A model generated the notes under the pieces. The model was not told the DNA's origin and did no database searches. It saw only the letters and a program-made list of their open reading frames with translations. 32,000 nt of DNA from the NCBI RefSeq assembly GCF_000018785.1, contig NC_010163.1:1020001-1052000 (forward strand). The letters are read 5' to 3'. The stretch is from Acholeplasma laidlawii PG-8A (GTDB lineage: Bacteria > Bacillota_I > Bacilli_A > Acholeplasmatales > Acholeplasmataceae). Positions 6,444 to 24,081 of the stretch are shown here, one piece after another. The translations under genes and the position numbers were made by a program. The stretch's first letter is position 1. Each line of letters starts with the position of its first letter.

Positions 6444-8681
6444 TTAATTTCTATTTGGATTCCATTCAATAGGGTGTTCTTTCCATACTGTGAAATCTAT
6501 ACCTGGTACATTTGTTTGATCTGTTGGGTTTGTAGGTAATAATAACTCCCAAAAAGACCCGTCGTATATAACAAAATCACCTTGTAGATATCTATTTGTT
6601 GATACCCAAACATCAGTTAACTCGTTCCAACCATTTCTACTAGTACCTGGCTCTGAAGTATTAGTTGTATCATGATTACCATACCATACATAATATTTAC
6701 CTTCATGTTCTACGATGCTCACTTTAGAACCTGAGCGATAATACATCGCTGTAGGGCTCCATTTTAATGATAATGGTTGCCACGCTCCAGAAACACCTGG
6801 TATTTGATTTTGTGAAGTCCCACTTCTTAGAATGTAGAGATCATTATTATAACTAACGATTGAATCTTGAACGTATGTATTTTTAAAGTCCCAATTTTCT
6901 TCTAATGACCACCAACCTGATGTTGTCTCTGGATTGGTGTTTATTGTTGCTGTTGGGTTATTCCAAAAGTATCTTTTACCATTGTAGATTATACTATCAT
7001 AACGGTTATAAGTTGTTGTAGATAGATAATTTCCACGATGATTGAGTAATCTCCAGTTTGCACTTGAACCCGGTGTATTACCAGTACTTACAGCATTAAC
7101 TGCAATGTAGTATTGATTATTATAAGAGACAATACTTTGAACTGGATATGCTCTATTAACATATTCTATGCCAAGTCGTTGATATCCATAAGCACCTAGT
7201 GCAGGTACACTCCAGTTTTCAGCTACCGTTACTTTATAATAATATCCCTCATGATATACATACTCGCCTGACTGATATTTACCCTTATTATGCTCACTGT
7301 AATTGATACTCATGTATTTTAAATTGTAGTGTTGTTCAATAATTTCACTATGTGCGGTAAAACTACCGTAAGACACATACCATGACTTAATATCATTAGA
7401 TAGTGTATAAGTTACATCGCCAGGAGTATATACTTTACCTGTTTCATGTTCTAAACCTAAGAGTTCCCATGCCCATGCTAGTGGTGGAGGATTTCCAGCC
7501 CATACATTAGCTTTTGCACGATAAAATTTATTATTATAGTAAATAATTTCACCAGCTAAGTAAGCTCTTGTATCAGAGTAGTATACAGAAATAGTTTGCC
7601 ATGCCCAAGGAGATGCATCTGGTTCTGCACCTGTAGATGCTTGTCTAGCTTTATAATAACCAGCGTTAACCCCATTACCACTTAAGTCATCATAGTAGAC
7701 CATATCACCAGATTTATACGTAACATTTGGTTGCCAAGTTGGCACCATGGAAGGTGCATACAACACATCTTCTAATCCCCAACTTGTAATTGGCCCATAA
7801 GTTATTTGAATTTCAATTGTATTTCCATTTCTTGAGACTGTGAAATTAAGATGGTTTACTAAATTAATTCTAACATCATAAGTACCCGCAGGAAGTGTTA
7901 AACGGTTAGATAGTGCAGATCTTGTATGCCAAATATAACTAAAGTTATTTGTACCTGATTTAAACTCCACATACACACCACGCGTATATTGAGGATTAGA
8001 TACTCCATTAAAAATAACATTTAATGATTGACCTGAGATATTGGAAGGTACATTAAATTGCTTAATTACGTGATTAGAAGCTGCTAGATTCCAATTTGAA
8101 GATCGATTAGTTTGAACAGCTGATACTACTAAACTTAGTTTTAAAACGGCATTATTTGATAAGTCGTTTAATACACTTGTATTCACAGATGCATTAGTGA
8201 TAAATCCAACATCAAATGGTGTTAAGCCTTTTGATAAGACTTGATCATGCATATAGTATCCTGAATTATCGATACGGTTTGATTGTGCATAATTCCATGT
8301 AAACACATTAGGTTTATTTTGTACAACGTTGTTTACAGTCCATACTTCGACTAATTTAAATCGAACATTAACCGTTTTTAATGCAGTGATTAAAACATTT
8401 ATTGAAAGCGGAAAAGTTGAACCACTTAAATTATTTGAGATTTGTGATTTAGTAAATTGAATTGCATATTCTGTTTGATTATAATAACTACTGTTATAGT
8501 CTAGTGGTTGAGAACCTAATTGTACTCTTGCACTTGATGATATAAGTTCTGTACTACGTGCATTAAGGTCAAGTGCCTCAGTTGAAGGTTGTAGTGTAAA
8601 CCATGCATAAGCACCTACTATTGTTGATAGGAAAACGGTTGTCATAAGAAATAATATAATGATTTTTTTTATTTTTCTCAT
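6444..8681 (-). CDS. Large secreted fibre-associated adhesin: SipW-type signal peptide, N-terminal beta-rich domains and about nine CBM5/12-like carbohydrate-binding repeats
   Basis: The N-terminus TIVGAYAWFTLQPS matches the SipW-cognate signal class (TasA GGTWAAFND, CalY GGTFAYFSD). Residues about 314-735 (nt 6477-7742) contain about nine repeats of 40-48 aa with the pattern W..n.Y..GD.V.Y.n..Y.a...t...P......W. An example is YLAGEIIYYNNKFYRAKANVWAGNPPPLAWAWE, which matches the chitin-binding type 3 / CBM5_12 consensus. Confidence 0.7.
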   Translation of the reverse strand: MRKIKKIIILFLMTTVFLSTIVGAYAWFTLQPSTEALDLNARSTELISSSARVQLGSQPLDYNSSYYNQTEYAIQFTKSQISNNLSGSTFPLSINVLITALKTVNVRFKLVEVWTVNNVVQNKPNVFTWNYAQSNRIDNSGYYMHDQVLSKGLTPFDVGFITNASVNTSVLNDLSNNAVLKLSLVVSAVQTNRSSNWNLAASNHVIKQFNVPSNISGQSLNVIFNGVSNPQYTRGVYVEFKSGTNNFSYIWHTRSALSNRLTLPAGTYDVRINLVNHLNFTVSRNGNTIEIQITYGPITSWGLEDVLYAPSMVPTWQPNVTYKSGDMVYYDDLSGNGVNAGYYKARQASTGAEPDASPWAWQTISVYYSDTRAYLAGEIIYYNNKFYRAKANVWAGNPPPLAWAWELLGLEHETGKVYTPGDVTYTLSNDIKSWYVSYGSFTAHSEIIEQHYNLKYMSINYSEHNKGKYQSGEYVYHEGYYYKVTVAENWSVPALGAYGYQRLGIEYVNRAYPVQSIVSYNNQYYIAVNAVSTGNTPGSSANWRLLNHRGNYLSTTTYNRYDSIIYNGKRYFWNNPTATINTNPETTSGWWSLEENWDFKNTYVQDSIVSYNNDLYILRSGTSQNQIPGVSGAWQPLSLKWSPTAMYYRSGSKVSIVEHEGKYYVWYGNHDTTNTSEPGTSRNGWNELTDVWVSTNRYLQGDFVIYDGSFWELLLPTNPTDQTNVPGIDFTVWKEHPIEWNPNRN

Positions 8682-8685
8682 AGTA

Positions 8686-9318
8686 TTACACCATAACCTT
8701 TACACGGTATACGAGTGCATGATACACAGACTTTTGAGCCGTTGTAAGACCATCATAAGCGCCCCAAACATAAATGTATACACGTATAGATGATTCACCT
8801 TGAAGTGAAAATCCTGCTAAATTATGTTGATTCATCGCTGTAAACACACTACCAGTTGATTGGAAATATTGAAATCTATTTGCCATGTATACAGTTTGTG
8901 TTAATGTAGGATGTTCTTCTAGCACAAGATATTTTAAACCAGCTTGATTACCAGCATACACACCAAATTCAGGTGCTGCTACAACATTAAGTTGTAGATT
9001 CACATTCACTGATGTTAATCCTGGATTAGTAATAACAATTTCAAGTACTGATGCATATCCATAAAAGTTAAAACTTGTATCATTAAAATCACTATCATTT
9101 AAGTAAACTAAGTCTCTTATGCGATCTCCTAAAAAGATACCTTCAGTTTCAGCATCAATTTCTAAGACATCCTCATTACCCATTAATGAACCTTCAAAGT
9201 AATCTACATTTGCACGATTGCCATAGTCAATAAACCAAGCAAAAACGCCAGTTGCCATGGAAGCCACTGATACAAGTAAGAATATGATTAAGATAACTGA
9301 TCTTCTTAATGATTTCAT
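8686..9318 (-). CDS. SipW-dependent-type signal peptide protein (TasA/camelysin-like, small paralogue)
   Basis: N-terminus SMATGVFAWFIDYGNRANVDYFEGS. C-terminal VYIYVWGAYDG motif is shared in degenerate form with three paralogues upstream. GAAAGG RBS lies 5 nt from the ATG. Confidence 0.6.
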   Translation of the reverse strand: MKSLRRSVILIIFLLVSVASMATGVFAWFIDYGNRANVDYFEGSLMGNEDVLEIDAETEGIFLGDRIRDLVYLNDSDFNDTSFNFYGYASVLEIVITNPGLTSVNVNLQLNVVAAPEFGVYAGNQAGLKYLVLEEHPTLTQTVYMANRFQYFQSTGSVFTAMNQHNLAGFSLQGESSIRVYIYVWGAYDGLTTAQKSVYHALVYRVKVMV

Positions 9319-9401: not shown

Positions 9402-9995
9402 TTAATCTTGACGTTTGTCGTTTTTTTGTTTTAATTCTTGTTTATATTTTTCTAAGTCTGTTTTATATTTATATTTTTGACGCTCAGTAATTTGATAAAT
9501 TACTATGAGTAGTTGAAAAATAAATATAAGTGCAATAATTAATATGATGATACCAATGACTAAGAGTCGTTCATTTACTAAATACCTTCCAATAAAACTA
9601 CCACCACTCCATACTACTTTAGATAAGTACTTTTCTTTGGTAATATAACCTTCAGTATCAAAATCACTTTCATCATTATTGACACCTTTTGTAATATAAC
9701 CTTCTGGGTTTTCAGAGATAATTTCATGGATTATAACTCGGTTATCCATAGATGTGAACGCAATGACATCTCCAATTTTCAAGTTATCAAATGCTACATC
9801 ATTCATAATAACAAAGTCCCCAACAAGGATTTCGGGTTCCATAGATGGTGTAAGTACTAAACCGTAACTAACACCTAAAATTGAAAATGGCTTTTTAGTT
9901 ATTTGACTTAATAAGGACATTGTAACAAATATGAGTGTGAAGAATATGATGATTGTTACAATAATCTTTTTAGTATGATTAATTGTCTTTTTCAT
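9402..9995 (-). CDS. sipW: Signal peptidase I, SipW (ER/archaeal S26B) type, paralogue 2
   Basis: N-terminal TM, LTPSMEPEILVGDFVIM (catalytic Ser box as in B. subtilis SipW SGSMEP), IIHEI (His box), KGVNNDESD, a C-terminal TM and a K/E-rich tail. ATGA overlap with the upstream gene. Confidence 0.8.
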   Translation of the reverse strand: MKKTINHTKKIIVTIIIFFTLIFVTMSLLSQITKKPFSILGVSYGLVLTPSMEPEILVGDFVIMNDVAFDNLKIGDVIAFTSMDNRVIIHEIISENPEGYITKGVNNDESDFDTEGYITKEKYLSKVVWSGGSFIGRYLVNERLLVIGIIILIIALIFIFQLLIVIYQITERQKYKYKTDLEKYKQELKQKNDKRQD

Positions 9996-11773
9996 TTACC
10001 TTTTTTTAAAGCAGCCATTGCTTTATCATGAGATGCTTTAATTTTCTCTTTTTGTTTATCAATGTATTGTTTTTGTTTTAACTTTTGCTTTTCTTTAGAA
10101 ATTCTAAGTTTTTCTTGAGCTTTTTCTTTACGTTTTCTTAGTCTTTCTAGTTCACGCTCAGCCTTACGTTTTTGAATATCTGCAATACGTTTAGCTTCTT
10201 TTTTGTATCTTTCACGATACTGTGTTTTTAATTCAAGCAACATTTCATTATCTTTTGCAACTTGAACCTTTTGTTCATCAAGCATTTCAACACGCTGTAA
10301 TTTTATGTACTCTTCATTTAGTTCACTAACTCTTTTAGCTTCTTTTTTAAGCTTTTCATCACTGTCTAGTTTAACAGACTTGAAGAATCTTTTTTGATAT
10401 CTAAGTGTTGTTTGATACCATTTTTTCTCTAGTGCGATTGCTTTTTTGTAATCAGCTTCTTTTAGTTGTCTTACGATAGATGCAATTTTAAATTTTTCAT
10501 CTGCACTATCTAAGTCATCTTTAGGGTTAGTTTCTTGAACTAATCTATCGAAGACATCATCGTCTTGATTGATTTCAAAATAAGATGCATAAAGACTGTT
10601 TGTTATTTCTATCGTATCTTTTAAAGCTTTTCTTAATGCGACTTCATATTTAGGTTCTGTCTGCATGTACTGATCAATAGTTTTCTTAAACATCTGTTTT
10701 GTCTTGTTTAAGTAAAATTCATTCATCAAAGTATCTTCAATTTTATAGCTTTCAGGATCGATTTTAAGTTCATCCGCAGTAAGTTTTATTTCTTCTGCTT
10801 TTTTCACCTTAAAACTTTTGGTTAATAACTTTTGGTCTTTTTCTCTTACAACATCATGAAACATCATGGTTGAGAATGCAAATAATGCATTTTGACTTAA
10901 GTGTTTACGATATGTTTCATTAAATCTTTTTTGTTTTACATCACGAATAAGTTCAAACCCTAAACTATTGTACTGGTCTAAGTATTGCCAGAGTAGGTAA
11001 CAATTTCGGTAGTTCGTATTTTTTAAGATGATTTGTGTTTTCATGATTGGGGCTTTTACCTTTCGGTAATTGCGCATCGTCTTCATGAATTCAGTATTTA
11101 AAGCATTTGCTAACTTTTTGTGAAGTTCTTGTGCACGTGCTAATAACTTTTGATTATCTTCTTCAATTTTACCTTGATCGATAGTTTGAACTTCTCTTAA
11201 ATCTATATTAATTTCATATTTTGAATTATCTATGGATAACTCAATGGTATTATTTAACTCTTTAATCTTTTTAGTATTAACGTCTTCTTCAAGTATTCTC
11301 ATACGTCTTGAGACAAAATCTACTAAACGTTGAATCAGAGTTGCAACAAATCTATTTTCATAAATACCAAACTCATCTTCTGAAAATTCAACTAAAAGCT
11401 TTTTAGGCATAACCTCAGTTGTTGGTTGATCTTTGTCTGGTAGTTTGAGTAAGTGTGTATTTGCAGCTAAGTGTCTAACAGTTCTAGATGTAGTTTTCTT
11501 TGCTTTTTCAACAATTACGACTTCCTCTTCAACTCTTAAGGCTGATTTGTAGTTTCGTAATATTTTATCTACATAAGGATAGTATGATTCAATAGCAAAT
11601 ATCCAGTGATCATCGAACTTTTTTGTTTCTGTTGTCTCTACTTGCTTAAGTTTATTTACGCCATCATATAAACCTTGATAAAAGTAAACAGGAAAGTCAG
11701 TATCTTCTTCGAGTTCATCAAGTCTTGAGATTAACATGGTGTAGAATAAATCTAAATCATAGCTATTTTTCAA
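9992..11773 (-). CDS. Cytoplasmic 593-aa partner protein: McrC/DUF2357-like N-terminal region, no recognisable nuclease motif, long K/E-rich coiled-coil C-terminus
   Basis: TTG start with a GAAAGG RBS, 15 nt after the ATPase stop. The FGIYENRFVATLIQRLVDF and NYRNCYLLWQYL motifs resemble the ENRF.. and Y..l..lW..L motifs that I recall from McrC/DUF2357 proteins. I see no PD-(D/E)xK-like D...(D/E)xK block. The last 130 aa or so are a K/E/R-rich heptad-like sequence (KRKAERELERLRKRKEKAQEKL...). Confidence 0.45.
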   Translation of the reverse strand: MKNSYDLDLFYTMLISRLDELEEDTDFPVYFYQGLYDGVNKLKQVETTETKKFDDHWIFAIESYYPYVDKILRNYKSALRVEEEVVIVEKAKKTTSRTVRHLAANTHLLKLPDKDQPTTEVMPKKLLVEFSEDEFGIYENRFVATLIQRLVDFVSRRMRILEEDVNTKKIKELNNTIELSIDNSKYEINIDLREVQTIDQGKIEEDNQKLLARAQELHKKLANALNTEFMKTMRNYRKVKAPIMKTQIILKNTNYRNCYLLWQYLDQYNSLGFELIRDVKQKRFNETYRKHLSQNALFAFSTMMFHDVVREKDQKLLTKSFKVKKAEEIKLTADELKIDPESYKIEDTLMNEFYLNKTKQMFKKTIDQYMQTEPKYEVALRKALKDTIEITNSLYASYFEINQDDDVFDRLVQETNPKDDLDSADEKFKIASIVRQLKEADYKKAIALEKKWYQTTLRYQKRFFKSVKLDSDEKLKKEAKRVSELNEEYIKLQRVEMLDEQKVQVAKDNEMLLELKTQYRERYKKEAKRIADIQKRKAERELERLRKRKEKAQEKLRISKEKQKLKQKQYIDKQKEKIKASHDKAMAALKKGK

Positions 11774-11788
11774 ATAGAGTCAACCTTT

Positions 11789-13339
11789 CTACATTTGTTT
11801 CTTATAGTTGTTAATCATATTACGTGCTTCAGTAAATGATTGTTTACCAAATAGTTTATCAATTAAAGCAATAAGCTCATCTAATTCTTTTCTTAAGAAT
11901 GGTAAGTTTAAGAACTCAAATTTACGTAATACTTTTCTAGTTATAATATAATCAAGACCATCTACCTCAGATTGTCCACAAGCAACGAATATTGGCACAA
12001 ATGTATTGATTTGTTTCATAATACGGTTACCAAATGTAATTTGGAAATTTTGCGTAATGAACTCATCTATTTTTTTAAGATTTTCTAATGATTTTTGAGA
12101 AATCGGGTTCATTTTTACTGCTTCTTTAAATAATGCATCCATGTAATCATGTGTGACATGAATTGAATCTGTGAATGGTGCATCAATGTAATCTGCTCTT
12201 ACAGATAATTCAATAGATGCAGCACGGTCATATACTTTATCTGTGATTGCAAATGTTGAGTCATCACGGTTAGCTGTACCTATGAACCAAATATTTGGTG
12301 GTAACAGTAGTTTTCCTTCTTTTAAGTGTATTGGATCACCTGGAACAGTATCTGATGTAATATCAATTTCCCATTCACTTGTATTTGGCATTTCCAATAT
12401 AGATAAGAAGTCAGCAAAGTAGTATTCAACACGCGCTAAGTTCATCTCATCTAATACAATAAAGTTTAGGTCAGTACGGTAAGTGGCTTCATAAATAGAT
12501 TTTAAGAAGTCAGTCTCATTAAATTTTTTGGTAAATTCATTTAGATATCCAATCATTTCTGCGCGATCACGCCATGATGGCTGCACAGAAATGATTGAAG
12601 TATCGTTATTAAAGAATTTCCCCATAGAATAAGGTAGAGACGTTTTACCAGTACCTGAGATCCCTTCTAAGATAATAATCTTTGAAGACCCCATACCTGC
12701 AAAAAATATTGAAACAATTTTTGGCGAATAAAATAATTTTAATTGTGATGCTGCAAAGTTAATAAATCTATCAACAAGTTGATTTAAGTTAAGCATATCT
12801 GACTCTGTCATGTTGGTTTGAAGTACTTGCATATGGTAAGTTTCATCCACTGCAATAAGCTTTGTAAAACGTGAAGTTTGTTCTTCTAACTTTTCATCCT
12901 CTTCCTCGTTTAACTTAGCTAATGTACCGGTTACACTACGACGATTCATAGGTAATCCTAGGTCACTTGATTTAAGTGTTAATATTGCATTTTTTTCATC
13001 AGTTACATCAATCAGTTTTTGATTAAGTTCTGTGATTTCAATTAAAAGATCGTCTTTAGAAACTTCCTTTTTCACGAATCTAAAATATCTACGCAATAGT
13101 ACGATGATAAAGTAAGCTAGTGATACAATAAATATGAAATTGATGATTAGTATTAATATACCAATGATCCAGTCCAAAGCGTTAAAGTTCATGCTTGCAT
13201 TTACAAATGAATCTAACATGTTCGATGGATTTACCCATAAAGCATAGTAGAATGCATTAAATATGGTTGCAAAGAATGATGCTACATACTCAAAAACAGT
13301 TTGGATGAATTCTATGTACCAAGTTGCAAACTCACTCAT
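11789..13339 (-). CDS. Membrane-anchored McrB-like AAA+ (AAA_5) NTPase
   Basis: Two N-terminal hydrophobic helices (about aa 15-35 and 57-82), then a coiled-coil linker. Walker A IILEGISGTGKTS (nt 12641-12664), SVQPSWRDRAEMIGYL, Walker B/McrB-type FIVLDEMNLARVEYYFADFLSILE, and LLLPPNIWFIGTANRDDSTFAITDKVYDRA (compare McrB iP.N.yiiGTMNtaDrs...D.AlrRRF). Confidence 0.7.
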   Translation of the reverse strand: MSEFATWYIEFIQTVFEYVASFFATIFNAFYYALWVNPSNMLDSFVNASMNFNALDWIIGILILIINFIFIVSLAYFIIVLLRRYFRFVKKEVSKDDLLIEITELNQKLIDVTDEKNAILTLKSSDLGLPMNRRSVTGTLAKLNEEEDEKLEEQTSRFTKLIAVDETYHMQVLQTNMTESDMLNLNQLVDRFINFAASQLKLFYSPKIVSIFFAGMGSSKIIILEGISGTGKTSLPYSMGKFFNNDTSIISVQPSWRDRAEMIGYLNEFTKKFNETDFLKSIYEATYRTDLNFIVLDEMNLARVEYYFADFLSILEMPNTSEWEIDITSDTVPGDPIHLKEGKLLLPPNIWFIGTANRDDSTFAITDKVYDRAASIELSVRADYIDAPFTDSIHVTHDYMDALFKEAVKMNPISQKSLENLKKIDEFITQNFQITFGNRIMKQINTFVPIFVACGQSEVDGLDYIITRKVLRKFEFLNLPFLRKELDELIALIDKLFGKQSFTEARNMINNYKKQM

Positions 13340-13368: not shown

Positions 13369-14058
13369 TTATTTTTTGTTGCTGTGTTTTTCTAATAATT
13401 CTTTTTCTAATTCTAAACGAAGTGCTTCTTTTTCAAGAGCATATTTTAATTCTAACTTTTCTTTGTTGCGTCTTAATATATATCTAATTAAGATAACAGC
13501 TTCAAATGTAAATAGAATAAACAGTGGTAAGATGACATAGAATACTAATCCGTTTGGCGTACGTATTTCTTGAATTGCACTACCAACACCAGACCAATGT
13601 CCTGTATATCTTCCTATAACATCATCTAGACTAGATGCTTCTAATTGCATATTAGGATCAAAGTTTGTACCATCAAATGAGCCGTACATACGTGCATTGA
13701 CATCACCTTGAGTTACTACTGTGTCTCCTGTAATAGTTTTGATTCTATGGATGATATGTATACGTTGAACGTTATCATAAAATACAATGATTTGACCAAC
13801 TTCTAAGTTTTGTTTTTGACTATCACTTAGAATATCTATAAATACTAGGGAGCCTGTATCAAAGTTGTCTTTCTCTTCACCTTCCATCGATCCAGATAGA
13901 ATAGAAACGAAGCCTTTACCAAAAATATTCGGTAAATCTTTTTCGGTTCTAACTGTTAGGTTGGATATTGAAAAGAGTAATAACATTAAGAGTAATAGAT
14001 AAAATACAACATTACCCACAATCCCTAAATACTTAAAGACTCGTTGTTTACTTGACAT
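13369..14058 (-). CDS. sipW: Signal peptidase I, SipW type, paralogue 1
   Basis: ILSGSMEGEE (Ser box), IHIIHRIKT (His box), TQGDVN and VIGRY all parallel B. subtilis SipW. C-terminal TM followed by a K/E-rich tail (LELKYALEKEALRLELEKELLEK). Confidence 0.85.
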   Translation of the reverse strand: MSSKQRVFKYLGIVGNVVFYLLLLMLLLFSISNLTVRTEKDLPNIFGKGFVSILSGSMEGEEKDNFDTGSLVFIDILSDSQKQNLEVGQIIVFYDNVQRIHIIHRIKTITGDTVVTQGDVNARMYGSFDGTNFDPNMQLEASSLDDVIGRYTGHWSGVGSAIQEIRTPNGLVFYVILPLFILFTFEAVILIRYILRRNKEKLELKYALEKEALRLELEKELLEKHSNKK

Positions 14059-14165: not shown

Positions 14166-15077
14166 TTAAGCTGTTGCAGTAAAATTAAAGTTAACTGTTA
14201 AAACACCAGAAAGAATCGCGTTAAATGCTTCTTGATCCCAACCTTCAACCCAAACTCTAACTGTAATAGCTCCAACTTTTGCACTTGAACCACCAATTGC
14301 AGTTAATGATGATGTATCATAAGTATATCCTGAAATTACAGTTCCGTTCGGATTTAGTGCAGCAACAACTACAGTAAGTCCATTACCAGCTTGTTCTGTT
14401 GGTTTAAGAGCTAATGCAGCAGCAGCTGTATCAAAGTCGTTTTCAACAAGATCAGTATCCATGATAGCGTTATAGAATAAGATAGCTTCATTTGTAGCAT
14501 AAGTTCCAAAACCTAGACTATTTGTGTCAGTACCAACACTTTGCTCAAAAATTGTTGATGTTGTAGTAGTAATCATATCTTGGAAACTTACTCTTGCTGC
14601 ATTTGACACATAATCAAGGATTGGTGTATTTGCATCTGGAGCACCTGTTTGTCTAGTACCTGGTACATATATACCTGGAATCCAAGAAGTTTGTGTACCA
14701 CTAAGTGTTAATGAATCTATAATGATATTATTTAGGTTTGCAGAACCTGCAAACAATAAGTCAAATTCAATGAATCCAGCAGTTGCAGCTGTACTAGATC
14801 CTAGATCATATAAAGCTATACCATCTTGTGATGTTAATGGAACAAATGTTACAGCACCTGCAGCTGTTTGCATTTCAGTAGTTGTTAAAGTGTTTTTCCA
14901 AGTAGTTCCATCAAGTGAAACATAGAAACCTTCTCCGGTTTGAACTGTACCTGTGAAAGCTTCAATAGTCGCTCTATTATTAATTGTGAACCATGCTAAT
15001 ACCCCTACGGATAAAGCCACGCCTGTTAGTACTAATGCTAGTACCGACATAACTAATTTATTTGTTAATGATTTCAT
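14166..15077 (-). CDS. TasA-like fibre protein, probable major subunit (SipW-dependent signal peptide)
   Basis: Strongest RBS in the locus (TAAGGAGAGGAAAAAA-ATG). LSVGVLAWFTINNRATIEAFTGTVQTG parallels TasA GGTWAAFNDIKSKDATFASGTLDL. The mature part is T/A/G-rich with few charged residues. It ends VRVWVEGWDQEAFNAILSGVLTVNFNFTATA (compare the TasA C-terminal strand IKLQFSFEATQ). Confidence 0.7.
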   Translation of the reverse strand: MKSLTNKLVMSVLALVLTGVALSVGVLAWFTINNRATIEAFTGTVQTGEGFYVSLDGTTWKNTLTTTEMQTAAGAVTFVPLTSQDGIALYDLGSSTAATAGFIEFDLLFAGSANLNNIIIDSLTLSGTQTSWIPGIYVPGTRQTGAPDANTPILDYVSNAARVSFQDMITTTTSTIFEQSVGTDTNSLGFGTYATNEAILFYNAIMDTDLVENDFDTAAAALALKPTEQAGNGLTVVVAALNPNGTVISGYTYDTSSLTAIGGSSAKVGAITVRVWVEGWDQEAFNAILSGVLTVNFNFTATA

Positions 15078-15157: not shown

Positions 15158-16105
15158 TTATGATGCTTCAACATATCTGGCTGATCTTATATTTAAACTA
15201 ATAAGTAGTTTATCATCTAGTATCGGATCAAATGCATCTGCATCCCATCCTTCTAGCCAAATATTAATTGTTGTCATACCTTGATAAATGTAAGTTCCAT
15301 TATCTTCTGATATGAGTTGTAACTCTGCAAGTAAGCTTGTTTTATCTAGTGCTATATCATCTTGCAGTGGTGAAAATTTTGATAATTCATAGATTTCATT
15401 CGTTGGTGCTGGTGGTATTTGTAATTCAATACCTAAGCGCTTCATGAAATAATCATATGCTCCAAATACTTTTCCAAATCCTCGGTATCTATCTTCAGAT
15501 ACATCATATATGAATGATATATCAGGGTTTGGACTATCACTTGAAATTCTAACAGCATTTTTAGCATAATACAAACGATTTGTACCTGCAGGTATGATAC
15601 CCATACCATCATGAAATGCGATTGGGTTGGTCCATCTATTACCTTTAGATGTAACATATGTACCTTTTAGAGTAGATGCTTCATCATATACAGGATCAAT
15701 TTTATTTGATAGGTATATGAATTTTTGGTGTGCTCTTACATTTGGATTATCACTTGTTAATCTAAAATATAGATCAAAGGATATATAATCATCATTCTTA
15801 GTTGCCCTTTTAGTTAATTCATAAGGACCTTTGAAGAAGTTTTTACCATCTTGTGAAGTAATTGATGATAATACTGGGTTTTTACCAATAACATCCGATA
15901 ACATCTTATTATCTATAGTTTTATGATAAGTAATACCATCTAGTGACAGTTGAATGTTATCGTCTAATGAAATACCTATTTCAATAGCCTCAATCATATT
16001 TGTCTTAGATATTGAAAACCATGCATATACTGTAGTAGATAGTGTAATTGTTACACACATAAACGATATAATGAGTAAATAAAATTTCTTATGCATTTTA
16101 TTCAC
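15158..16105 (-). CDS. TasA-like fibre protein paralogue (SipW-dependent signal peptide)
   Basis: N-terminus LSTTVYAWFSISKTNMIEAIEIG. C-terminal INIWLEGWDADAFDPI motif is shared with the major subunit. 8-nt overlap with the upstream gene. Confidence 0.65.
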   Translation of the reverse strand: MNKMHKKFYLLIISFMCVTITLSTTVYAWFSISKTNMIEAIEIGISLDDNIQLSLDGITYHKTIDNKMLSDVIGKNPVLSSITSQDGKNFFKGPYELTKRATKNDDYISFDLYFRLTSDNPNVRAHQKFIYLSNKIDPVYDEASTLKGTYVTSKGNRWTNPIAFHDGMGIIPAGTNRLYYAKNAVRISSDSPNPDISFIYDVSEDRYRGFGKVFGAYDYFMKRLGIELQIPPAPTNEIYELSKFSPLQDDIALDKTSLLAELQLISEDNGTYIYQGMTTINIWLEGWDADAFDPILDDKLLISLNIRSARYVEAS

Positions 16106-16841
16106 CTGTTACACTTAAGATCATATTTAACTTTAATGATCCTCCAAGTAACTCTTCTTCAGTATATTTACCTATTTTTGATGTTAAATATTCTTCCAAA
16201 TATCCATCAATCCAAATAAATACTGTAACCTTTGAAACATCGCCTGCTTTGAGTTCAAATATATTTGAATCCACTGCAACCGAATTACTTCTAAACCTTA
16301 AGGATGAAACGTCATCTATTCTAAATGGTTGGAATTCATAGACATCTCTTACATCATCAACTACGACCATAATTCTTAAGTGTTCTTCAATATGATTATT
16401 TAATTCTTCAAACACTATTTTGTAGTTAATACGGTTTATTGTAGCTGTTTGATTCATGTTTTTAACATAAAATGTAAATGCTACAACTTCTCTATCTTTA
16501 TCTAAAACATTTTTTAGATAATATCCATTTGTATTTAGCGCTTCTTGATAGTGAAATGCCATAATACCCGAATAAGATGCTTGATTGACAAACGCAGTAC
16601 CTGGATACCTTAACACAGTTCTTGTATCTTTAAAATCTTCTGTTTCAGAGATTCTAATTGAGTGTCCACTAAAGTCATCAATCCTAACTGAGTAGTCTCC
16701 GGTATTTTGCCCATAAAACGATACAACACCTAATGTTAAGGATAGAAATCCAAATAACGGTATGAGCAGGAATATGAATTTAGATGTTCTGGTTGATCTT
16801 CTAATAGTGCTATTGATCCCCCAAAATTTAGTTGTCCTCAT
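16098..16841 (-). CDS. Divergent TasA-like paralogue with an atypical, possibly uncleaved, signal anchor
   Basis: Basic N-terminus plus TM (FIFLLIPLFGFLSLTLGVVSFYGQNTGD), with SFYGQ where the paralogues have AWF(T/S). C-terminal VTVFIWIDGYLEEY matches the family motif. First gene after the riboswitches (GAGGA RBS). Confidence 0.5.
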   Translation of the reverse strand: MRTTKFWGINSTIRRSTRTSKFIFLLIPLFGFLSLTLGVVSFYGQNTGDYSVRIDDFSGHSIRISETEDFKDTRTVLRYPGTAFVNQASYSGIMAFHYQEALNTNGYYLKNVLDKDREVVAFTFYVKNMNQTATINRINYKIVFEELNNHIEEHLRIMVVVDDVRDVYEFQPFRIDDVSSLRFRSNSVAVDSNIFELKAGDVSKVTVFIWIDGYLEEYLTSKIGKYTEEELLGGSLKLNMILSVTGE

Positions 16842-17184: not shown

Positions 17185-18585
17185 TTATTTTTCTAATTCT
17201 TTTCTAGCTTTTAAAAATTGGGTAGTATCAACAACATTCATTGGTTTAGTTAAATGATACCCTTGACCATAGTCTACACCTTTTAGAGTTAACATCTCTA
17301 CCATGGCTTGATCTTCAATACCTTCTGCAACAAGCATTAAAGACTTTTTCTTTACAAACTCAATAATCATATCTAAATACTTTCTAAAATTATAATTTTG
17401 TTCTAGTTTGAAGAAATCTTTGTTGAATTTAATCATGTCAATTTGGAATCTTTCAACCAAATCCATGACATCATAGTCAGTTGTAGATATATCTATAGCC
17501 AGTTTAAATCCCAGAGTTTTAATCTTTATTAGATTTCTTCTAAATACTTGATTATTCTTGTAAAGTGTAAAGTCAGGAATTTCTATTGCAATGTTTGATG
17601 CATCTTGACGATACTTTTCAACTAGTCGTTGAAAAATTGTAAATGTCATCTCATTTAAAATTTGTCTAGGTGAAACGTTAATATTAATTACAACATCATT
17701 AAGTCTTTGTTGACTTAAATCTACTAAGAGTTCAAGTGCTTGTTCAACTGCAATATTACCAATATCATCAAGTTCTCCTGTTTGCTCTGCAAGATGCAGG
17801 AACTTAGAAGGTGCTAATATCCCTTTTTTAGGATGATTCCATCGAAGTAATGCTTCTAGTCCATAAACTTTATTCATATCTTTTAAGTTGATGATAGGTT
17901 GATAATAATAAATGAACTCTTTATTATTTTTAGCATTTTTAAGTTCGTGAAATAAGTCTAAACTTTCTTTAGTTTGACTTAACTCCTCTGAATAATACTT
18001 AATGTCATTACCACCACTTCTTTTGACCATATAAAGAGCAATCTCAAGTGATTGGTATAATAAATCTAGATTTTCACCATGAAGCGGATAAGTAGCTATC
18101 GACATAGACACAGTTTTCTTTATTGTAACTTTGTCAAGAATTTGAATTTTCTTTTCTGCTTCTATCTTAATACTTTTTGCTAAATTATATATATTAGAGT
18201 GATCAAATGAAGCAGGTATATATAAATAGAAACGGTCAGGTTTTTCACCTCTAGCAATAACTGATTCTTCGGGTAGTGCACTATTAATGTGTTTTGAAAT
18301 ATAAGAAACGATAAATGTCTCTTCTTCTTTATTAAAAGTATCTACAATTTCTTGAAACTCATCTAAATCAACTAGCATTAAGGTAAAAGGATCATCTTTT
18401 TTCTTACGACGCTTAATAGCACGGTTAATCAATTGATTAAATACATCTATTGAAACAACCTCTTCAGATAATAGAAGTTTTTCATCTTTATATTTTCTAA
18501 TCTCAATTTTAAGTAAAAAGAATAAACCTATAATAAGGCCTATAATAACAACTACTATACCGAACATCAAAAGTATATCGGTCAT
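17185..18585 (-). CDS. Membrane-anchored GGDEF-EAL protein with degenerate GGDEF and partly degenerate EAL (possible c-di-GMP receptor)
   Basis: One N-terminal TM. The GGDEF position reads ARGEKPDRFYLYI. The EAL domain keeps EALLRW, NINVSPRQ, AEGIED and GQGYH, but has IAIEIPD and LAIDISTT where the metal-binding ELTE and DDFGTG motifs are expected. Confidence 0.8.
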   Translation of the reverse strand: MTDILLMFGIVVVIIGLIIGLFFLLKIEIRKYKDEKLLLSEEVVSIDVFNQLINRAIKRRKKKDDPFTLMLVDLDEFQEIVDTFNKEEETFIVSYISKHINSALPEESVIARGEKPDRFYLYIPASFDHSNIYNLAKSIKIEAEKKIQILDKVTIKKTVSMSIATYPLHGENLDLLYQSLEIALYMVKRSGGNDIKYYSEELSQTKESLDLFHELKNAKNNKEFIYYYQPIINLKDMNKVYGLEALLRWNHPKKGILAPSKFLHLAEQTGELDDIGNIAVEQALELLVDLSQQRLNDVVININVSPRQILNEMTFTIFQRLVEKYRQDASNIAIEIPDFTLYKNNQVFRRNLIKIKTLGFKLAIDISTTDYDVMDLVERFQIDMIKFNKDFFKLEQNYNFRKYLDMIIEFVKKKSLMLVAEGIEDQAMVEMLTLKGVDYGQGYHLTKPMNVVDTTQFLKARKELEK

Positions 18586-20987
18586 AAATTCACCTTCTTT
18601 TTTATAAACTCAAATGCTTCTTTTTCAGGAAGTGCTTGTGAAACATAAAAACCTTGAATAATAGCAGTTGATTCTTTCCTGATTTGTTCTACTTGTTTAT
18701 CAGTTTCTACCCCTTCAATAATAACACCCATTTTAAGATTCTTACCTAAAGCAATCATTGTTTTTAAAATTTGTCTTGCTTTACTAGATGTTTCAATTTC
18801 ATCAACAAATAATTTATCAATTTTTATGTTATCAATCGGTAGACGTTTAAGGTAGTTTAATGAAGAGTAGCCCGTACCAAAGTCATCAAGTTGGATTTTA
18901 AAATTAAGTTCTTTTAGTGCATTAAATTTTTCTACAATAACATCCATTTGTAAAATAAGTAGTGTTTCAGTAAGCTCAATTGCAATCCGACCTGGATCTA
19001 CTTGGTACTTATCTTTTAAAGCAATCAGTTCATTAATAAAACCAGGTTGAAGTAATTGTCTTGGTGAAATATTAAATGAAACATCAATATCCATACCTTC
19101 TAAAGACTTCGCTATTCTAAAGACCTTATCATTAATCACTCGCCCTAAGTCGATGATTAAATTAGATTTTTCTGCTTGTCTAATATAGGTTGCAGGAGAT
19201 TCTTTTATATATTTTGGATTATGCCAACGAAGCAGTAATTCAAAACCAACTACACGTTTTTCATGCAAGTCATATTGTGGTTGCATATACATTTGAAACT
19301 CATCGTTTTCTATACCTTTTCTAATATCTATTTCTAATTGGTTTGCTCTATTTCTTAAATCCAGATAGCGTTCTGTATATATCATTAAGTTATTTGTAGT
19401 AGATACGATTGCACGTTCATAAGTTACATCAACAGCATCTAGTATTTCTTTAGTTGATGCGTTAGTGATGGTACCTTTATTATGTACTATACCAATTAAT
19501 AGTTCTAACTTTACTGGTAAATCGGGTAATAAAATCTTTGTATCAACTAACTCCATCATTTGTTTTGCCCAACCAACGGTTACATCATAATTAACATCTT
19601 TTTGTTGAAGTATGACAAACTCATGTTTTTCGATATGGAATAAATACATATTTGGATACATCTTAGACTGAAATAATTCAATTAATACTTTATTTACTTC
19701 TTGTGACTTTTGACGTCCAATGGATTTAGAAATTTCATCAAAAGACTTAATACCTATGACAATCAAACTAAAGCGATCTTTTCTATTAAGCGTTTCTATC
19801 ATCTCTTCTAGTGCTAATTTATTTTTTAGTCCGCTATCTGGATGTGTTAAAGCTAAATCTTTATATTTATCTAATACATTTGAAGTACTATCAATAATTT
19901 CTCCTATGAGTTGATAGTTTCTTGCATACTTATTAACTAAAAATCTAACTCTTATTTTAGGGTCCAACTTATCACAATCCATATAAAATGGTTTATTTGT
20001 TTTCAATATGGTTGGCATATCTAACTTTTCACTGGTTAGATCAGTTAATAACTTAATTTCATGATGTTTTATTAGATTTAGAAATAATTTATTCATCTTA
20101 CGTATTTGACCTAAACCACCAGCTTCTATCATGATAAGATCAGATCTTAGTGTTTTAGTAATCTTTTCAAACACAATATCATCATCAAAACGTCTTTTGA
20201 CAACCATCAAACTAAATACTACAAAACTTGCAAGGATTAGTAGTCCTAGTGCTAGATAACTCCAAATAACTGGTACAAAAAGTACTAAATAGTCATATTG
20301 ATCATCAACACTTAAGTAAATATAATCACTATCTATTTTAGAATAAGATAATACATATGTTTTAGAATCAAGCGTATAATTTAAAAATCCAAACTCGTTT
20401 TGGCTTAACTTGGTATCTAAGTTGCTATAAACTGATGTCGGAAAATAGTTTGAGCCAAATAGGTTTGTGTTATTTACTGCATCATTCGAATGGTATTTAA
20501 CAATACCGTTAGAATTTAATACAAAACCTGTGTCACCAAAACTTAAACCCACCATTGCTAGCACTTCACTAAATGGTTTGTATGTTACTTGATTAAGTGT
20601 AGGATGCTTTAAGATTAGATAGGTTAGATTTGATGTTTCATCACTAAAGATATCAGATAATCGATTAATTTCATAATTGGATAGTTCACTTACAATTAAA
20701 GTGGATGGATCATAATCTTTTGTAGGCCATGTAAGCGTACCTGCACTATAACTTTCTGTTAACACATCGATTCTTGTGCTAAGTATGTCATATTCTATTT
20801 GGTGTGTTTCAAAAGAGATTCGATTAGCTTCATTTTTAAGGGTTGTGTCTAAGATGAAAATATAAAACAGGCTATATACAACAAGTAAAAAGCCTAAAAT
20901 GATAAATAATCTTAACATGAAGTTTTTAGTTGATTTCGTCAATTTATTCTCCCACCAGTTAAAAATAAATACTAATTTTATATTCAT
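18582..20987 (-). CDS. Sensor c-di-GMP phosphodiesterase: TM, extracytoplasmic domain of about 190 aa, TM, linker, degenerate GGDEF, intact EAL
   Basis: The EAL motifs are all present (FELLLRW, FNISPRQ, IAIELTET, QLDDFGTGYSSL, IKIDKLF, IIEGVET, IQGFY). The GGDEF position reads FHIEKHEFVIL. ATGA overlap with the downstream GGDEF-EAL gene. The start codon is uncertain because there is no clear RBS; Met24 is an alternative. Confidence 0.85.
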   Translation of the reverse strand: MNIKLVFIFNWWENKLTKSTKNFMLRLFIILGFLLVVYSLFYIFILDTTLKNEANRISFETHQIEYDILSTRIDVLTESYSAGTLTWPTKDYDPSTLIVSELSNYEINRLSDIFSDETSNLTYLILKHPTLNQVTYKPFSEVLAMVGLSFGDTGFVLNSNGIVKYHSNDAVNNTNLFGSNYFPTSVYSNLDTKLSQNEFGFLNYTLDSKTYVLSYSKIDSDYIYLSVDDQYDYLVLFVPVIWSYLALGLLILASFVVFSLMVVKRRFDDDIVFEKITKTLRSDLIMIEAGGLGQIRKMNKLFLNLIKHHEIKLLTDLTSEKLDMPTILKTNKPFYMDCDKLDPKIRVRFLVNKYARNYQLIGEIIDSTSNVLDKYKDLALTHPDSGLKNKLALEEMIETLNRKDRFSLIVIGIKSFDEISKSIGRQKSQEVNKVLIELFQSKMYPNMYLFHIEKHEFVILQQKDVNYDVTVGWAKQMMELVDTKILLPDLPVKLELLIGIVHNKGTITNASTKEILDAVDVTYERAIVSTTNNLMIYTERYLDLRNRANQLEIDIRKGIENDEFQMYMQPQYDLHEKRVVGFELLLRWHNPKYIKESPATYIRQAEKSNLIIDLGRVINDKVFRIAKSLEGMDIDVSFNISPRQLLQPGFINELIALKDKYQVDPGRIAIELTETLLILQMDVIVEKFNALKELNFKIQLDDFGTGYSSLNYLKRLPIDNIKIDKLFVDEIETSSKARQILKTMIALGKNLKMGVIIEGVETDKQVEQIRKESTAIIQGFYVSQALPEKEAFEFIKKKVNL

Positions 20988-21061: not shown

Positions 21062-21790
21062 TTACGAATGTTTAATTCGAATATATGCTACCTTATCTTC
21101 ATTCTTAACTTCGAAGTCTTTAAATGTTTTAAAGAAGTTTAAAGCTTTTAGTTTAGAACCATAGTTTACAGGGTCAAAACCAGGGCTTTTCTTTCTTAGT
21201 TGGTCAGCGACTATACTCCAGTACGCCCAACCATCGTCTTCTAAGTTATCTTCAATAATTTTTTTAACTTCTTTAATAATTGTTTCCTTCTTAGGGATTA
21301 AAGAATTGCCATTTTTGTCTTTACGTTCTTTTTTAGGTTCTAACGCTTCTAGAATTTGGTCGATGTAGTAAAAACGCTCATAAGAATTAACTAATACTTC
21401 TGGAGTTTTTGACTCACCCATACCAATTAGATACATATTATCTTCTTTTAATCTAATAATTAATTTCGTAAAGTCAGAATCACTTGAGACGATACAAAAT
21501 GCATTCACCTTATTAGAATAGAGAAGATCCATAGCATCAATAACTAACGTAAAGTCTGTAGCATTACCTTTGTTTGATAGGTTTGCATATTGTTGGACGA
21601 AGGTAAGGCTGAATTTTTCAGCCTTACTACGCCATGTTTTTAATCTTTCTTGACTCCAATCCCCATAAACTCGGGCATTGGTGATTTTTCCATGTTTGTT
21701 AGCTTCATTTATAATAATATCTAAATAAATTGGTGAGATATTATCTGCATCAATTAAGAGTGCAATCGTATAATCTCTATCTGTCCTCAT
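21062..21790 (-). CDS. NYN (LabA-like PIN-fold) domain protein with C-terminal OST-HTH/LOTUS-like domain
   Basis: IALLIDADNISPIYLD...ARVYGDW...FCIVSSDSDFTKLIIRLKE is the LabA/NYN signature. The C-terminal region of about 80 aa (GWAYWSIVADQLRKKSPGFDPVNYG) resembles OST-HTH. Confidence 0.75.
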   Translation of the reverse strand: MRTDRDYTIALLIDADNISPIYLDIIINEANKHGKITNARVYGDWSQERLKTWRSKAEKFSLTFVQQYANLSNKGNATDFTLVIDAMDLLYSNKVNAFCIVSSDSDFTKLIIRLKEDNMYLIGMGESKTPEVLVNSYERFYYIDQILEALEPKKERKDKNGNSLIPKKETIIKEVKKIIEDNLEDDGWAYWSIVADQLRKKSPGFDPVNYGSKLKALNFFKTFKDFEVKNEDKVAYIRIKHS

Positions 21791-22661: not shown

Positions 22662-23321
22662 TTATACCTCTAATACTTTCATTTTAAAATCTTTCGGAAC
22701 TTTTTTTAAGGCTTCCATCAAATTGGGTTTTCTACAATCTAGATTATGACAATCACTAGCGACGATATCAACTAAACCCTTTTTGAAGTATTTTTGAGCT
22801 TGTTTTTTAAATTGTTTTCCATCTAAACCTAATATTGCTCCACTATTAACTTGAGTGATTGCCCCTAGTGATCTTATACGTTCTACATCAAACATATCTA
22901 GATATAAGTAGCGCTCAATGTGCGCTATAATTGGCGTAAATCCTTTTGCCACTAAGTTGTAAACAATATCGTGAATTGGTTCTTTATTTTGAACAGAAAA
23001 TTCTATTAATAGATATTTTTCTTTGAAACCTTGAAAAACAAAGTTATGATACTCTTTTGATTTTTCTTGATTAAATTTAACTTCATATCCTAAGTAAAGC
23101 GTCATTTCTGGTAAATCTACTTCAACACGTTTTTTCAAATCAGCAAATAGTTTAACATATTCTTTTGACGAAACTTTTTGGCTACTATTATGTACATGTG
23201 GTGTAATAATAACCTTATTAACACCACTTTGTAGTTGATGTTTTAATACTGCAAGTGCTTCTTCATATGTTTGTACACCATCATCTACACCAGGTAAAAT
23301 GTGTGTATGTATGTCCATCAT
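22662..23321 (-). CDS. ywqE: Manganese-dependent protein-tyrosine phosphatase (PHP family, CpsB/YwqE-like)
   Basis: MMDIHTHILPGVDDG start motif. SDCHN near the C-terminus. I trimmed the listed ORF (to 23420) to the ATG at 23319-23321, which lies 4 nt after the kinase stop and has an AAGGA RBS. Confidence 0.85.
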   Translation of the reverse strand: MMDIHTHILPGVDDGVQTYEEALAVLKHQLQSGVNKVIITPHVHNSSQKVSSKEYVKLFADLKKRVEVDLPEMTLYLGYEVKFNQEKSKEYHNFVFQGFKEKYLLIEFSVQNKEPIHDIVYNLVAKGFTPIIAHIERYLYLDMFDVERIRSLGAITQVNSGAILGLDGKQFKKQAQKYFKKGLVDIVASDCHNLDCRKPNLMEALKKVPKDFKMKVLEV

Positions 23322-23325
23322 ATGC

Positions 23326-24081
23326 TTATGATTTTTCCTTATCAAGATCATCTTGTAGTGATGAATTATATCCATAACCATAGCCATATGTATAAGATAA
23401 TAAATCACTATTTTTAACATCTACTTGTGTAAATGCTATCCCGATGATATTCACTTTGTTTTGTTTTAGAGTTTGGATTGCTTCATTAATTACTGTACGT
23501 TTCGTCTCGTTTTGAGCAACTATAAATAATACACCATCTGCTAATCTTGAAATATATAAGGCATCAGAAACTGCCATAGTTGGAGGTGAATCAAGTAAAA
23601 CGTAATCAAATTCCGTTCTTAATCTAGCAATTAAATCCTTTAATTTTTGTGCTTCTAAGACGTTTACAACTGCAGTTGTACGTTCACCAGCAACAATATA
23701 GTGAACACTAAACTTCTCAGAATAGTTTATTAATGTCTTGTAGTCGATTTTACCAGTTAAGTAGTCTGTTACACCATTTTCATTAGGTGATCTAAAAATT
23801 CTATTAATCTTAGGTTTTCTTAAATCTAAATCTACAATAACAACTTTTTTTCCTTTTTTACCAATTAAATGGGCAACGTTAGAAATAAATGTGGTTTTAC
23901 CAGCACCAGCTAGCGTTGAAGTAAATTGGACGACCTTAAAATTACCATCAACGTTGATATACTCTAAATTCACTAATGCCTTTTGGAAAGCTTCTGCAGT
24001 ATAAGACATAGGTGATTCATACGTTACTAAGTGATCATATTCAGCAATACGCTCTTTTTGAAATAATTTACGTCTTCTCAT
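23326..24081 (-). CDS. ywqD: Bacterial tyrosine kinase catalytic subunit (CpsD/YwqD-like BY-kinase)
   Basis: Walker A LAGAGKTT, A' VIVDLDLRKP, Walker B VLLDSPP, and a C-terminal tyrosine cluster YTYGYGYGYNSS. Confidence 0.9.
   Translation of the reverse strand: MRRRKLFQKERIAEYDHLVTYESPMSYTAEAFQKALVNLEYINVDGNFKVVQFTSTLAGAGKTTFISNVAHLIGKKGKKVVIVDLDLRKPKINRIFRSPNENGVTDYLTGKIDYKTLINYSEKFSVHYIVAGERTTAVVNVLEAQKLKDLIARLRTEFDYVLLDSPPTMAVSDALYISRLADGVLFIVAQNETKRTVINEAIQTLKQNKVNIIGIAFTQVDVKNSDLLSYTYGYGYGYNSSLQDDLDKEKS

Follow-up and report, generated by a model that had tools for sequence, protein, structure and literature searches.

Introduction

McrBC is the textbook GTP-driven restriction motor, and the known SipW-dependent fibres (TasA, CalY and BsaA) are thought to assemble outside the cell without an energy source. 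We report here on a minus-strand locus of Acholeplasma laidlawii PG-8A in which genes for an McrB-family nucleoside triphosphatase (NTPase) and an McrC-like partner lie between two genes for SipW-type signal peptidases. The locus was analysed within a stretch of 32,000 nucleotides (nt) of contig NC_010163.1 (positions 1,020,001 to 1,052,000 of the forward strand), referred to below as the window. With a probability of about 65%, we regard this locus as the A. laidlawii representative of a class named CoCoPALM, that is, as an McrBC-derived NTPase module housed in an operon for peptidase-processed surface fibres or adhesins.

CoCoPALM was named by Bell et al. (eLife 2024) in one paragraph, with its analysis deferred to a future paper (PMC11090510). 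The class was defined by an McrB-homologous GTPase of the NxD clade that is fused to a transmembrane (TM) and coiled-coil module and linked to signal-peptidase genes; coiled coils were found on both the McrB and the McrC homologues, the TM and coiled-coil domain was described as FtsB-like, and the peptidases were termed 'likely pilus assembly factors', a link to pilus assembly being predicted (PMC11090510). The shortened NxD signature defines the branch of McrB homologues that holds both CoCoNuT and CoCoPALM (PMC11090510). Beyond the CoCoNuT paper and its preprint, we found no later paper that names CoCoPALM or ties DUF2357/McrB to SipW/TasA, and the literature searched contained no experimental study of the class. 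The lone paper retrieved for McrB together with SipW, on BsaA of Clostridium perfringens, appears unrelated, as the passages retrieved mention McrB only in a strain/plasmid table.

The core of the A. laidlawii locus consists of four genes, listed here with the evidence for each assignment (lengths in amino acids, aa):

13369..14058, minus strand: SipW-type (archaeal/endoplasmic reticulum-type) signal peptidase I, paralogue 1, 229 aa (TIGR02228)
11789..13339, minus strand: McrB-family NTPase, NxD clade (CoCoPALM type), 516 aa (motifs, alignment, PDB profile, PADLOC)
9992..11773, minus strand: McrC-like partner, 593 aa (DUF2357 match, alignment, AlphaFold model)
9402..9995, minus strand: SipW-type signal peptidase I, paralogue 2, 197 aa (TIGR02228)

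An NxD GTPase with an N-terminal TM helix and coiled coil, flanking signal-peptidase genes and a coiled coil on the McrC homologue are all present at this locus, and none of its features contradicts membership in the class. Judged by sequence, the A. laidlawii locus is a CoCoPALM member that carries every defining feature tested. What the present analysis adds to the class are SipW-type peptidases with Ser and His in place, a TFA-WF signal motif common to the putative substrates, linkage to GGDEF/EAL genes, presence in the wall-less Acholeplasmatales, and partner-SipW fusions. The original prediction, made from the letters of the window, had proposed an McrBC motor repurposed from DNA restriction to a membrane-associated role in fibre biogenesis. 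Comparative genomics gives this idea good support, but it is not new, having been anticipated with the naming of CoCoPALM in 2024; the accompanying claim of a new function for the ATPase family and a new fibre component had to be given up, as the class was already defined (PMC11090510).

Results

An McrB-family motor with intact catalytic motifs and a membrane anchor

All of the McrB-type motifs originally read in the 516-aa protein are present, namely GISGTGKT at position 226, VQPSW at 252, VLDEMN at 295, NRDD at 357 and DRAAS at 371. Walker A (GxxGxGK[ST]) and Walker B (hhhDE) are both intact. When 40 diverse relatives were aligned, G226, G229, G231, K232, D297, N300, N357, D359 and R372 were invariant, and E298 was conserved in at least 90%. 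The sensor-1 stretch reads GTAN357-R-D359-D and thereby shows the NxD signature with an Asp next to it; most of the top 150 NTPase representatives carry GT.N.D[DE]. When a profile built from the 40 relatives was compared with the PDB, McrB chains were the top matches (6hz4, 6ut6 and 7vsr, E=2.4e-6 to 5e-6, with 6hz4 at E=2.4e-6). McrB was also the best solved relative in a search with the single sequence (E ~0.01), and the Pfam AAA_5 and AAA_22 matches were sub-threshold. An exhaustive search with the NTPase returned 8,169 representative clusters at E<=1e-3, 739 of them at E<=1e-30.

The N-terminus had been described as two hydrophobic helices plus a coiled coil. We found one strong TM helix at residues ~57-82 (Kyte-Doolittle 2.96) and a short coiled coil, or charged heptad-like stretch, at ~93-120, in agreement with that description, but the first helix, an aromatic segment at ~9-35 with a maximum of 1.34, falls under the usual TM threshold. 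Two clear TM helices are present in several relatives. The positively charged flank RRYFRFVKK that follows the TM helix would, by the positive-inside rule, place the NTPase domain in the cytoplasm. The FtsB family was absent from the NTPase matches in general Pfam/NCBIfam scans, in which no comparison was aimed at FtsB. Together, these features identify the motor, at the level of sequence, as an NxD-clade AAA+ protein of the McrB family in which every catalytic motif is preserved and a TM tether is predicted.

Three N-terminal architectures occurred among the top 150 representatives: one or two TM helices, as in the A. laidlawii NTPase, four to five TM helices, or no TM helix and a long soluble extension. 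The NxD McrB-like NTPases with four to five TM helices include proteins P0274, P0276, P0289-P0291, P0303 and P0324. A full-length copy of the NTPase with 56% identity (protein P0066) is catalogued as part of a eukaryote transcriptome (Anaeramoba ignava), and its source is most likely a bacterium associated with A. ignava.

A putative McrC-derived partner with a charged helix at the nuclease position

The gene for the partner starts with TTG, 15 nt past the NTPase stop and with AAAGG upstream. In the public annotation (ACL_1008, strain PG-8A) the protein has 581 aa, 12 residues fewer than the open reading frame (ORF) beginning at TTG; the annotated start would match an in-frame ATG 12 codons downstream of the TTG. 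A resemblance to the McrC/DUF2357 N-domain had been suspected from the ENRF and Y..LLW motifs, and it is borne out by a match of residues 1-320 to DUF2357 (PF09823, McrC N-terminal; E=3.1e-11, 43.4 bits vs a cutoff of 23.3) that spans residues 66-193. No Pfam or NCBIfam family was matched by the full-length 593-aa protein, probably because its K/E-rich tail masks DUF2357, and for the same reason automatic annotation will often miss the McrC relationship of the partner. Of 42 database homologues, 26 matched DUF2357, as did 41 of the 63 orthologues from related genomic loci. The two motifs, YENRF at 138 and YLLW at 259, supply the residues that are invariant in the 42 homologues (Y138, E139, N140, R141, Y259 and W262).

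In the AlphaFold model of the partner (mean predicted local distance difference test score, pLDDT, 78.9), a mixed alpha/beta N-terminal region (residues 1-313) with a long beta-hairpin at 167-198 is followed by a disordered linker (319-348), by further helices and, at 417-592, by one predicted K/E-rich helix of ~176 residues, 50% of which are charged (31% K+R, 19% D+E). The K/E-rich coiled coil noted originally is thus present, although it is longer than the ~130 residues given for it. Past residue 313 the model contains only helices or disorder, and no beta-sheet domain occupies the position of PD-(D/E)xK. Consistent with this, W262 and Y288 are the last conserved columns in the alignment of 42 homologues, in which there is no acidic or Lys pair among these last columns and no conserved acidic or Lys column past residue 200. 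No significant match to a nuclease family was obtained for any of the 63 orthologues (one weak isolated match, E=0.0017), in line with the earlier failure to spot a PD-(D/E)xK block. Comparison of the partner-homologue profile with PDB sequences yielded only coiled-coil noise (apolipoproteins, ATP synthase b), which was discarded. The partner is accordingly described here as McrC-derived and not as a canonical McrC: by sequence profile and model, the nuclease appears to have been replaced by a charged helix of ~176 residues.

The pair can be compared in detail with two described systems. With classical McrBC of Escherichia coli and Thermococcus gammatolerans (6hz4, 6ut3-6ut8, 7vsr) it shares the AAA+ GTPase core, Walker A and B, the Asn-Asp signature and the encoding of motor and activator by two genes, but it differs in having NxD instead of NxxD, a membrane anchor instead of the N-terminal DNA-binding domain, no PD-(D/E)xK nuclease in the partner, and a context of surface-protein export instead of restriction. 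CoCoNuT (CnuB/CnuC), the sister NxD branch, resembles it in the NxD[D/E] signature, in coiled-coil fusions, in ~35-45% identity over the GTPase domain and in McrC homologues that are often without an active PD-(D/E)xK. In contrast to the A. laidlawii NTPase, the GTPases of CoCoNuTs are without a TM helix, and their long coiled coils are soluble. CoCoNuTs lie in defence contexts and are accompanied by nucleases (HEPN or others), helicases and RNA-binding domains, none of which was found at the A. laidlawii locus.

Two SipW-type peptidases that keep their catalytic residues

Both flanking peptidases exceeded the cutoff of TIGR02228 (archaeal/SipW-type signal peptidase I, 51.85 bits), SipW2 with 77.0 and SipW1 with 52.5 bits. 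Given that the Bacillus-specific equivalog model NF046067 remained below its cutoff (59 and 48 bits vs 190), they are not orthologues of Bacillus SipW. SipW1 has the catalytic Ser57 (SGSMEG) and His104 (IHRI); SipW2 keeps the Ser (PSMEP) and the His, while the aspartate of its GD motif is Val. In related loci the catalytic Ser was kept in all but one of the 57 upstream copies and in all 37 downstream ones, the catalytic His was kept in every copy (57/57 and 37/37), and the GD-motif Asp was present in 26 of the 37 downstream copies. Both peptidases therefore look active as far as their residues tell, and we rejected the possibility that they are inactive SipA-like 'assembly-factor' pseudo-peptidases, as Ser and His are conserved. 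Each paralogue ends in a C-terminal TM helix and a charged cytoplasmic tail (median ~50 aa, almost half of it charged).

Conserved gene order and natural fusion of partner and SipW2

For comparison with other bacteria, one genome per species was scanned. At least 578 loci with a relative of the NTPase were found, of which the best 80 were kept; together with two direct look-ups these gave 82 loci. They come from Acholeplasmatales, Izemoplasmatales, Anaeroplasma, Erysipelotrichaceae and Ruminococcus (isolates of R. flavefaciens included), and further from Christensenellaceae, Oscillospiraceae, Lachnospiraceae and Eubacterium ruminantium. The order sipW-NTPase-partner-sipW was nearly universal. 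The partner was found in 78 of the 82 loci, and sipW lay directly upstream in 57 of the 69 loci with room for it, directly downstream in 37 of 63, and within 6 kb of the pair in 72 of 82, so that the proposed co-occurrence with sipW was recovered. Among loci of at least 15 kb, sipW and the partner were present in 41 of 41, a 247-aa protein encoded at the head of the A. laidlawii operon in 30, and GGDEF/EAL genes in 26. Seen in dozens of genomes, the four-gene arrangement is far beyond chance, and the original view that the pair belongs to the sipW operon, and is not a defence islet, agrees with the loci of at least 15 kb. The system was present in almost every named Acholeplasmatales species recovered, which suggests a core trait that is inherited vertically.

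Intergenic gaps were short or overlapping, with a median of 2 nt between partner and sipW2. In A. laidlawii, the 29-nt gap between sipW-1 and the NTPase gene and the overlap of the partner stop with the sipW-2 start (ATGA), both noted originally, were confirmed. In five genomes of the R. flavefaciens lineage, partner and SipW2 are naturally fused into one in-frame ORF of 984-998 aa (L052:11709-14681, Ruminococcus flavefaciens MC2020; L031:7353-10307; L041:11787-14765; L044:9828-12824; L058:11595-14564). The fusion protein starts with the DUF2357 domain (YENKF), continues with ~450 residues of E/R/K-rich coiled coil and a TM helix, and then has an S26 peptidase domain with intact TGSMEP and VTHRI, a second TM helix and a charged tail. 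As the SipW N-terminus lies in the cytoplasm, the topology of the fusion protein is consistent. Taken with the ATGA overlap of A. laidlawii and the median gap of 2 nt, the fusion argues that partner and SipW2 act as one physical unit. The earlier suggestion that the SipW tails dock onto the partner coiled coil gains support from these five fusions and from the conserved charge of the tails.

No plasmid or phage record covered 80% or more of the NTPase. Plasmids and phages match the GTPase domain only, and these matches are sister-clade paralogues. One GTPase-domain relative (34% identity, residues 184-495) is on MT835511.1, a 46-kb contig from human faeces that is labelled bacteriophage.

The surrounding operon and its exported products

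The NTPase/partner pair of A. laidlawii is enclosed by a minus-strand gene run. From upstream to downstream, it comprises two membrane proteins with degenerate GGDEF plus EAL domains (20987..17185), a 343-nt spacer, the 247-aa membrane protein, two exported proteins of ~300 aa, the four-gene core (SipW paralogue 1, NTPase, partner and SipW paralogue 2) and finally exported proteins of 210 aa and 745 aa, the latter with CBM_5_12 repeats. Outside the four-gene core, the features are:

17185..20987, minus strand: two membrane proteins with degenerate GGDEF plus EAL domains (turnover or sensing of cyclic di-GMP, c-di-GMP), directly upstream of the operon
17065-17040, minus strand: terminator-like hairpin with an 11-bp stem, inside the 343-nt spacer, a consensus match only
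17004-16977, minus strand: promoter-like site TTGACA-16-TAAAAT with TG (extended -10), a near-consensus match only
16098..16841, minus strand: membrane-anchored protein, 247 aa, first operon gene (variant motif VVSFYGQ)
15158..16105, minus strand: exported protein, 315 aa, candidate second fibre subunit (signal motif VYA-WFS)
14166..15077, minus strand: exported beta-sandwich protein, 303 aa, candidate fibre subunit (signal-anchor VLA-WFT, model)
8686..9318, minus strand: exported protein, 210 aa, candidate minor subunit (signal motif VFA-WFI)
6444..8681, minus strand: exported protein, 745 aa, candidate adhesin (signal motif AYA-WFT, CBM_5_12 repeats)

The position of the promoter-like site ahead of the first operon gene suggests that the fibre operon has its own promoter. 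In the two upstream membrane proteins the EAL domains are strong, and the GGDEF domains are weak and without the GGDEF motif. The presence of GGDEF/EAL genes in the majority of the large loci suggests c-di-GMP control.

Four of the neighbours end their N-terminal hydrophobic segment in xxA-WF[T/S/I], and the 247-aa protein has a variant of it. The consensus in other genomes is [S/T][S/T]TFAWF[S/T]; AWF-type motifs were present on same-strand neighbours in 45 of 84 sequences (83 loci plus the window), AWF itself being counted 45 times. Predicted cleavage after the Ala of the motif would fit the -3/-1 rule and set Phe at P2'. P2' Phe is the feature reported to make TasA SipW-dependent (PMC10269814). 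The 303-aa protein is modelled as a beta-sandwich with an N-terminal strand (pLDDT 86.2), and the operon is closed by the large AWF-signal protein of 745 aa, whose CBM_5_12 repeats are of a chitin/carbohydrate-binding type. Based on these signals and domains, the neighbours are probably surface proteins with SipW-type signals, namely fibre subunits plus an adhesin. A relative of the 745-aa CBM_5_12 protein in a Mycoplasmatota genome (L003:16294-21545) exceeds 2,400 aa.

The operon resembles tapA-sipW-tasA of Bacillus subtilis, sipW-calY/tasA of B. cereus and sipW-bsaABC of C. perfringens in placing a dedicated SipW-type peptidase beside exported substrates, in signals that end in small-x-Ala plus an aromatic residue with Phe at P2', and in having several paralogous beta-sandwich subunits; a link to biofilm or adhesion is plausible. 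It differs from them in subunits that match neither TasA/Peptidase_M73 nor TIGR04088. To our knowledge, the TasA, CalY and BsaA operons have no NTPase and only one sipW.

Elsewhere in the window, capsule-type genes of this wall-less organism occupy 22662-24821 (minus strand) and encode a Wzz-like protein, a tyrosine-kinase-like ParA/AAA_31 ATPase and a CpsB phosphatase; in the mechanical calls, 95 nt are common to ORFs 22662..23420 and 23326..24081, and the true start is probably further downstream. A gene for a single protein with NYN ribonuclease and OST-HTH/LOTUS domains (21062-21790, minus strand) separates the EAL genes from a DegV gene. At 1924-3141 (minus strand) there is a solitary AAA_21 (AbiEii/OLD-like) ATPase gene (E=7e-39) that is possibly defence-related and is unconnected to the operon.

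Discussion

A proposed mechanism for the CoCoPALM module

Going beyond the class assignment, we propose that the McrB-like NTPase would form a hexameric ring, cytoplasmic and tethered to the membrane, into which the DUF2357 N-domain of the partner would insert to stimulate GTP hydrolysis, as in McrBC. The long helix of the partner, the stalk of the motor and the SipW tails would come together as coiled coils on the inner side of the membrane. Through this assembly, nucleotide-driven movement would pass to the SipW peptidases, where it would gate or power the cleavage of pre-subunits still anchored in the membrane and their transfer to the growing fibre. The adhesin would be the CBM5/12 protein of 745 aa, and the c-di-GMP enzymes encoded upstream would supply regulation. 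NTPase, platform and peptidase would then form the core of a pilus machine analogous to PilB/PilC/PilD and made of unrelated parts. The likeness to type IV pili and archaella is one of analogy only, a proposed hexameric NTPase being coupled to a peptidase and membrane-held subunits in each case: the protein families are unrelated, cleavage occurs after the hydrophobic segment here (class I, SipW-like) and before it there, and no homologue of the platform protein was found at this locus. The resulting proposal, that CoCoPALM is the first known nucleotide-powered machine for SipW-processed fibres, in which an exapted McrB ring and a nuclease-less McrC are coupled to peptidases, controlled by c-di-GMP and widespread, is tentative, and we would put it a little below even odds.

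Evidence that weighs against an operon for surface fibres

Several observations weigh against reading the locus as an NTPase module in a fibre operon. None of the five neighbours matched Peptidase_M73/TasA in Pfam; with TIGR04088, the SipW-cognate signal model, which was run on the N-terminal 50-60 residues, only the 303-aa protein gave a match, at 7.1 bits vs a cutoff of 19 (E=6.4); and Foldseek with the 303-aa model found nothing significant in the PDB, TasA included. A family profile of the same protein retrieved no TasA or CalY chain from the PDB, and its best pilin-like Foldseek matches, all non-significant, were the archaeal bundling pilin 7ueg (E=0.47) and chaperone-usher pilins (EcpA, CfaB; E ~1). 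The TasA-type label that the original prediction had given to the fibres was therefore dropped, and we know of no fibre demonstrated in Acholeplasma. For the partner, Foldseek against the PDB returned no McrC and nothing significant, so that its McrC link consists of the DUF2357 profile and the adjoining McrB-like gene. The 80 loci kept from the scan are those most similar to the query among at least 578, and the fusion is limited to one lineage, possibly a single event. Any role of the module is suggested by comparative evidence, and hexamer, nucleotide specificity and stimulation by the partner are extrapolated from McrBC. GTPases of the NxD clade have never been characterised biochemically, and the closest sister clades are defence systems (PMC11090510). 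The PADLOC model PDC-M26A matches the NTPase with E=6e-40, the best of three matched stretches being residues 151-320, and no paper on these loci was found in the literature searched.

Alternative explanations

The alternative that survives best is a regulatory switch, in which the McrB-like ring and its partner would act as a nucleotide checkpoint (GTP, possibly c-di-GMP) on the SipW peptidases or on the output of the operon and perform no mechanical work. The C-terminal tail of B. subtilis SipW is said (Terra et al., 2012) to have a regulatory role independent of peptidase activity. The linkage of degenerate-GGDEF plus EAL genes to the large loci fits such a switch, as does the control that McrC exerts on the GTPase activity of McrB (PMC11090510), and donor-strand fibres such as TasA require no NTPase (PMC9674648). 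However, the catalytic motifs of a hydrolysing AAA+ protein are all strictly conserved, which is more than a binding switch needs; a known c-di-GMP-binding motif was not identified, and neither NTPase nor partner has a DNA-binding or output domain. We consider the switch unlikely.

Less probable still is a machine for extraction or turnover. AAA+ rings are commonly unfoldases or extractors, and a ring that removes signal-anchor remnants, disassembles or retracts fibres, or controls the quality of stalled pre-subunits could find ample work here: several operon proteins have unusually long hydrophobic signal-anchors, and two peptidases are expected to leave many membrane-embedded remnants. In McrBC, though, the central pore is filled by McrC and no substrate is threaded there, the DUF2357 domain and the long hairpin of the partner are conserved, and no protease domain is associated with the pair. 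Extraction or turnover is accordingly judged quite improbable.

An anti-phage module at the membrane, resembling CoCoNuT or type IV restriction and linked to sipW either through a secreted or membrane effector or by hitch-hiking alone, might be argued from the defensive sister clades, from the PDC-M26A match to the motor and from the many GTPase-domain paralogues found on plasmids (286 records, a large number of them in Klebsiella), yet it is very improbable and, of the alternatives, the least compatible with the data: none of the 63 orthologous partners has a nuclease or toxic effector domain, the PADLOC partner models miss the second gene (no match at E<=1), two classes of Bacillota share one fixed gene order and almost all named Acholeplasmatales species recovered have the system, contrary to the patchy, island-borne distribution of defence genes, no plasmid or phage record has the full-length architecture, and one lineage has the partner joined to a signal peptidase whose catalytic motifs are intact. 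Synteny across classes and the fusion also led us to discard the idea that a defence islet had entered between the two sipW genes.

Implications

If the locus is indeed an McrBC-derived module of a fibre operon, a defence motor has been recruited to envelope biogenesis, having lost its DNA-binding and nuclease parts and gained a membrane anchor. Annotation of defence systems (PADLOC PDC-M26A) will probably give these genes a wrong label, and the partner-SipW fusion offers a direct handle on a testable interaction. The wall-less Acholeplasma would have an unexpected surface appendage, and gut and rumen Clostridia would share with the wall-less Acholeplasmatales a previously unrecognised pilus/adhesin system. 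An obligatory cytoplasmic NTPase would alter the picture of fibre assembly for a large group of Bacillota, among them the rumen fibre-degrader Ruminococcus flavefaciens and the Christensenellaceae and Oscillospiraceae of the gut.

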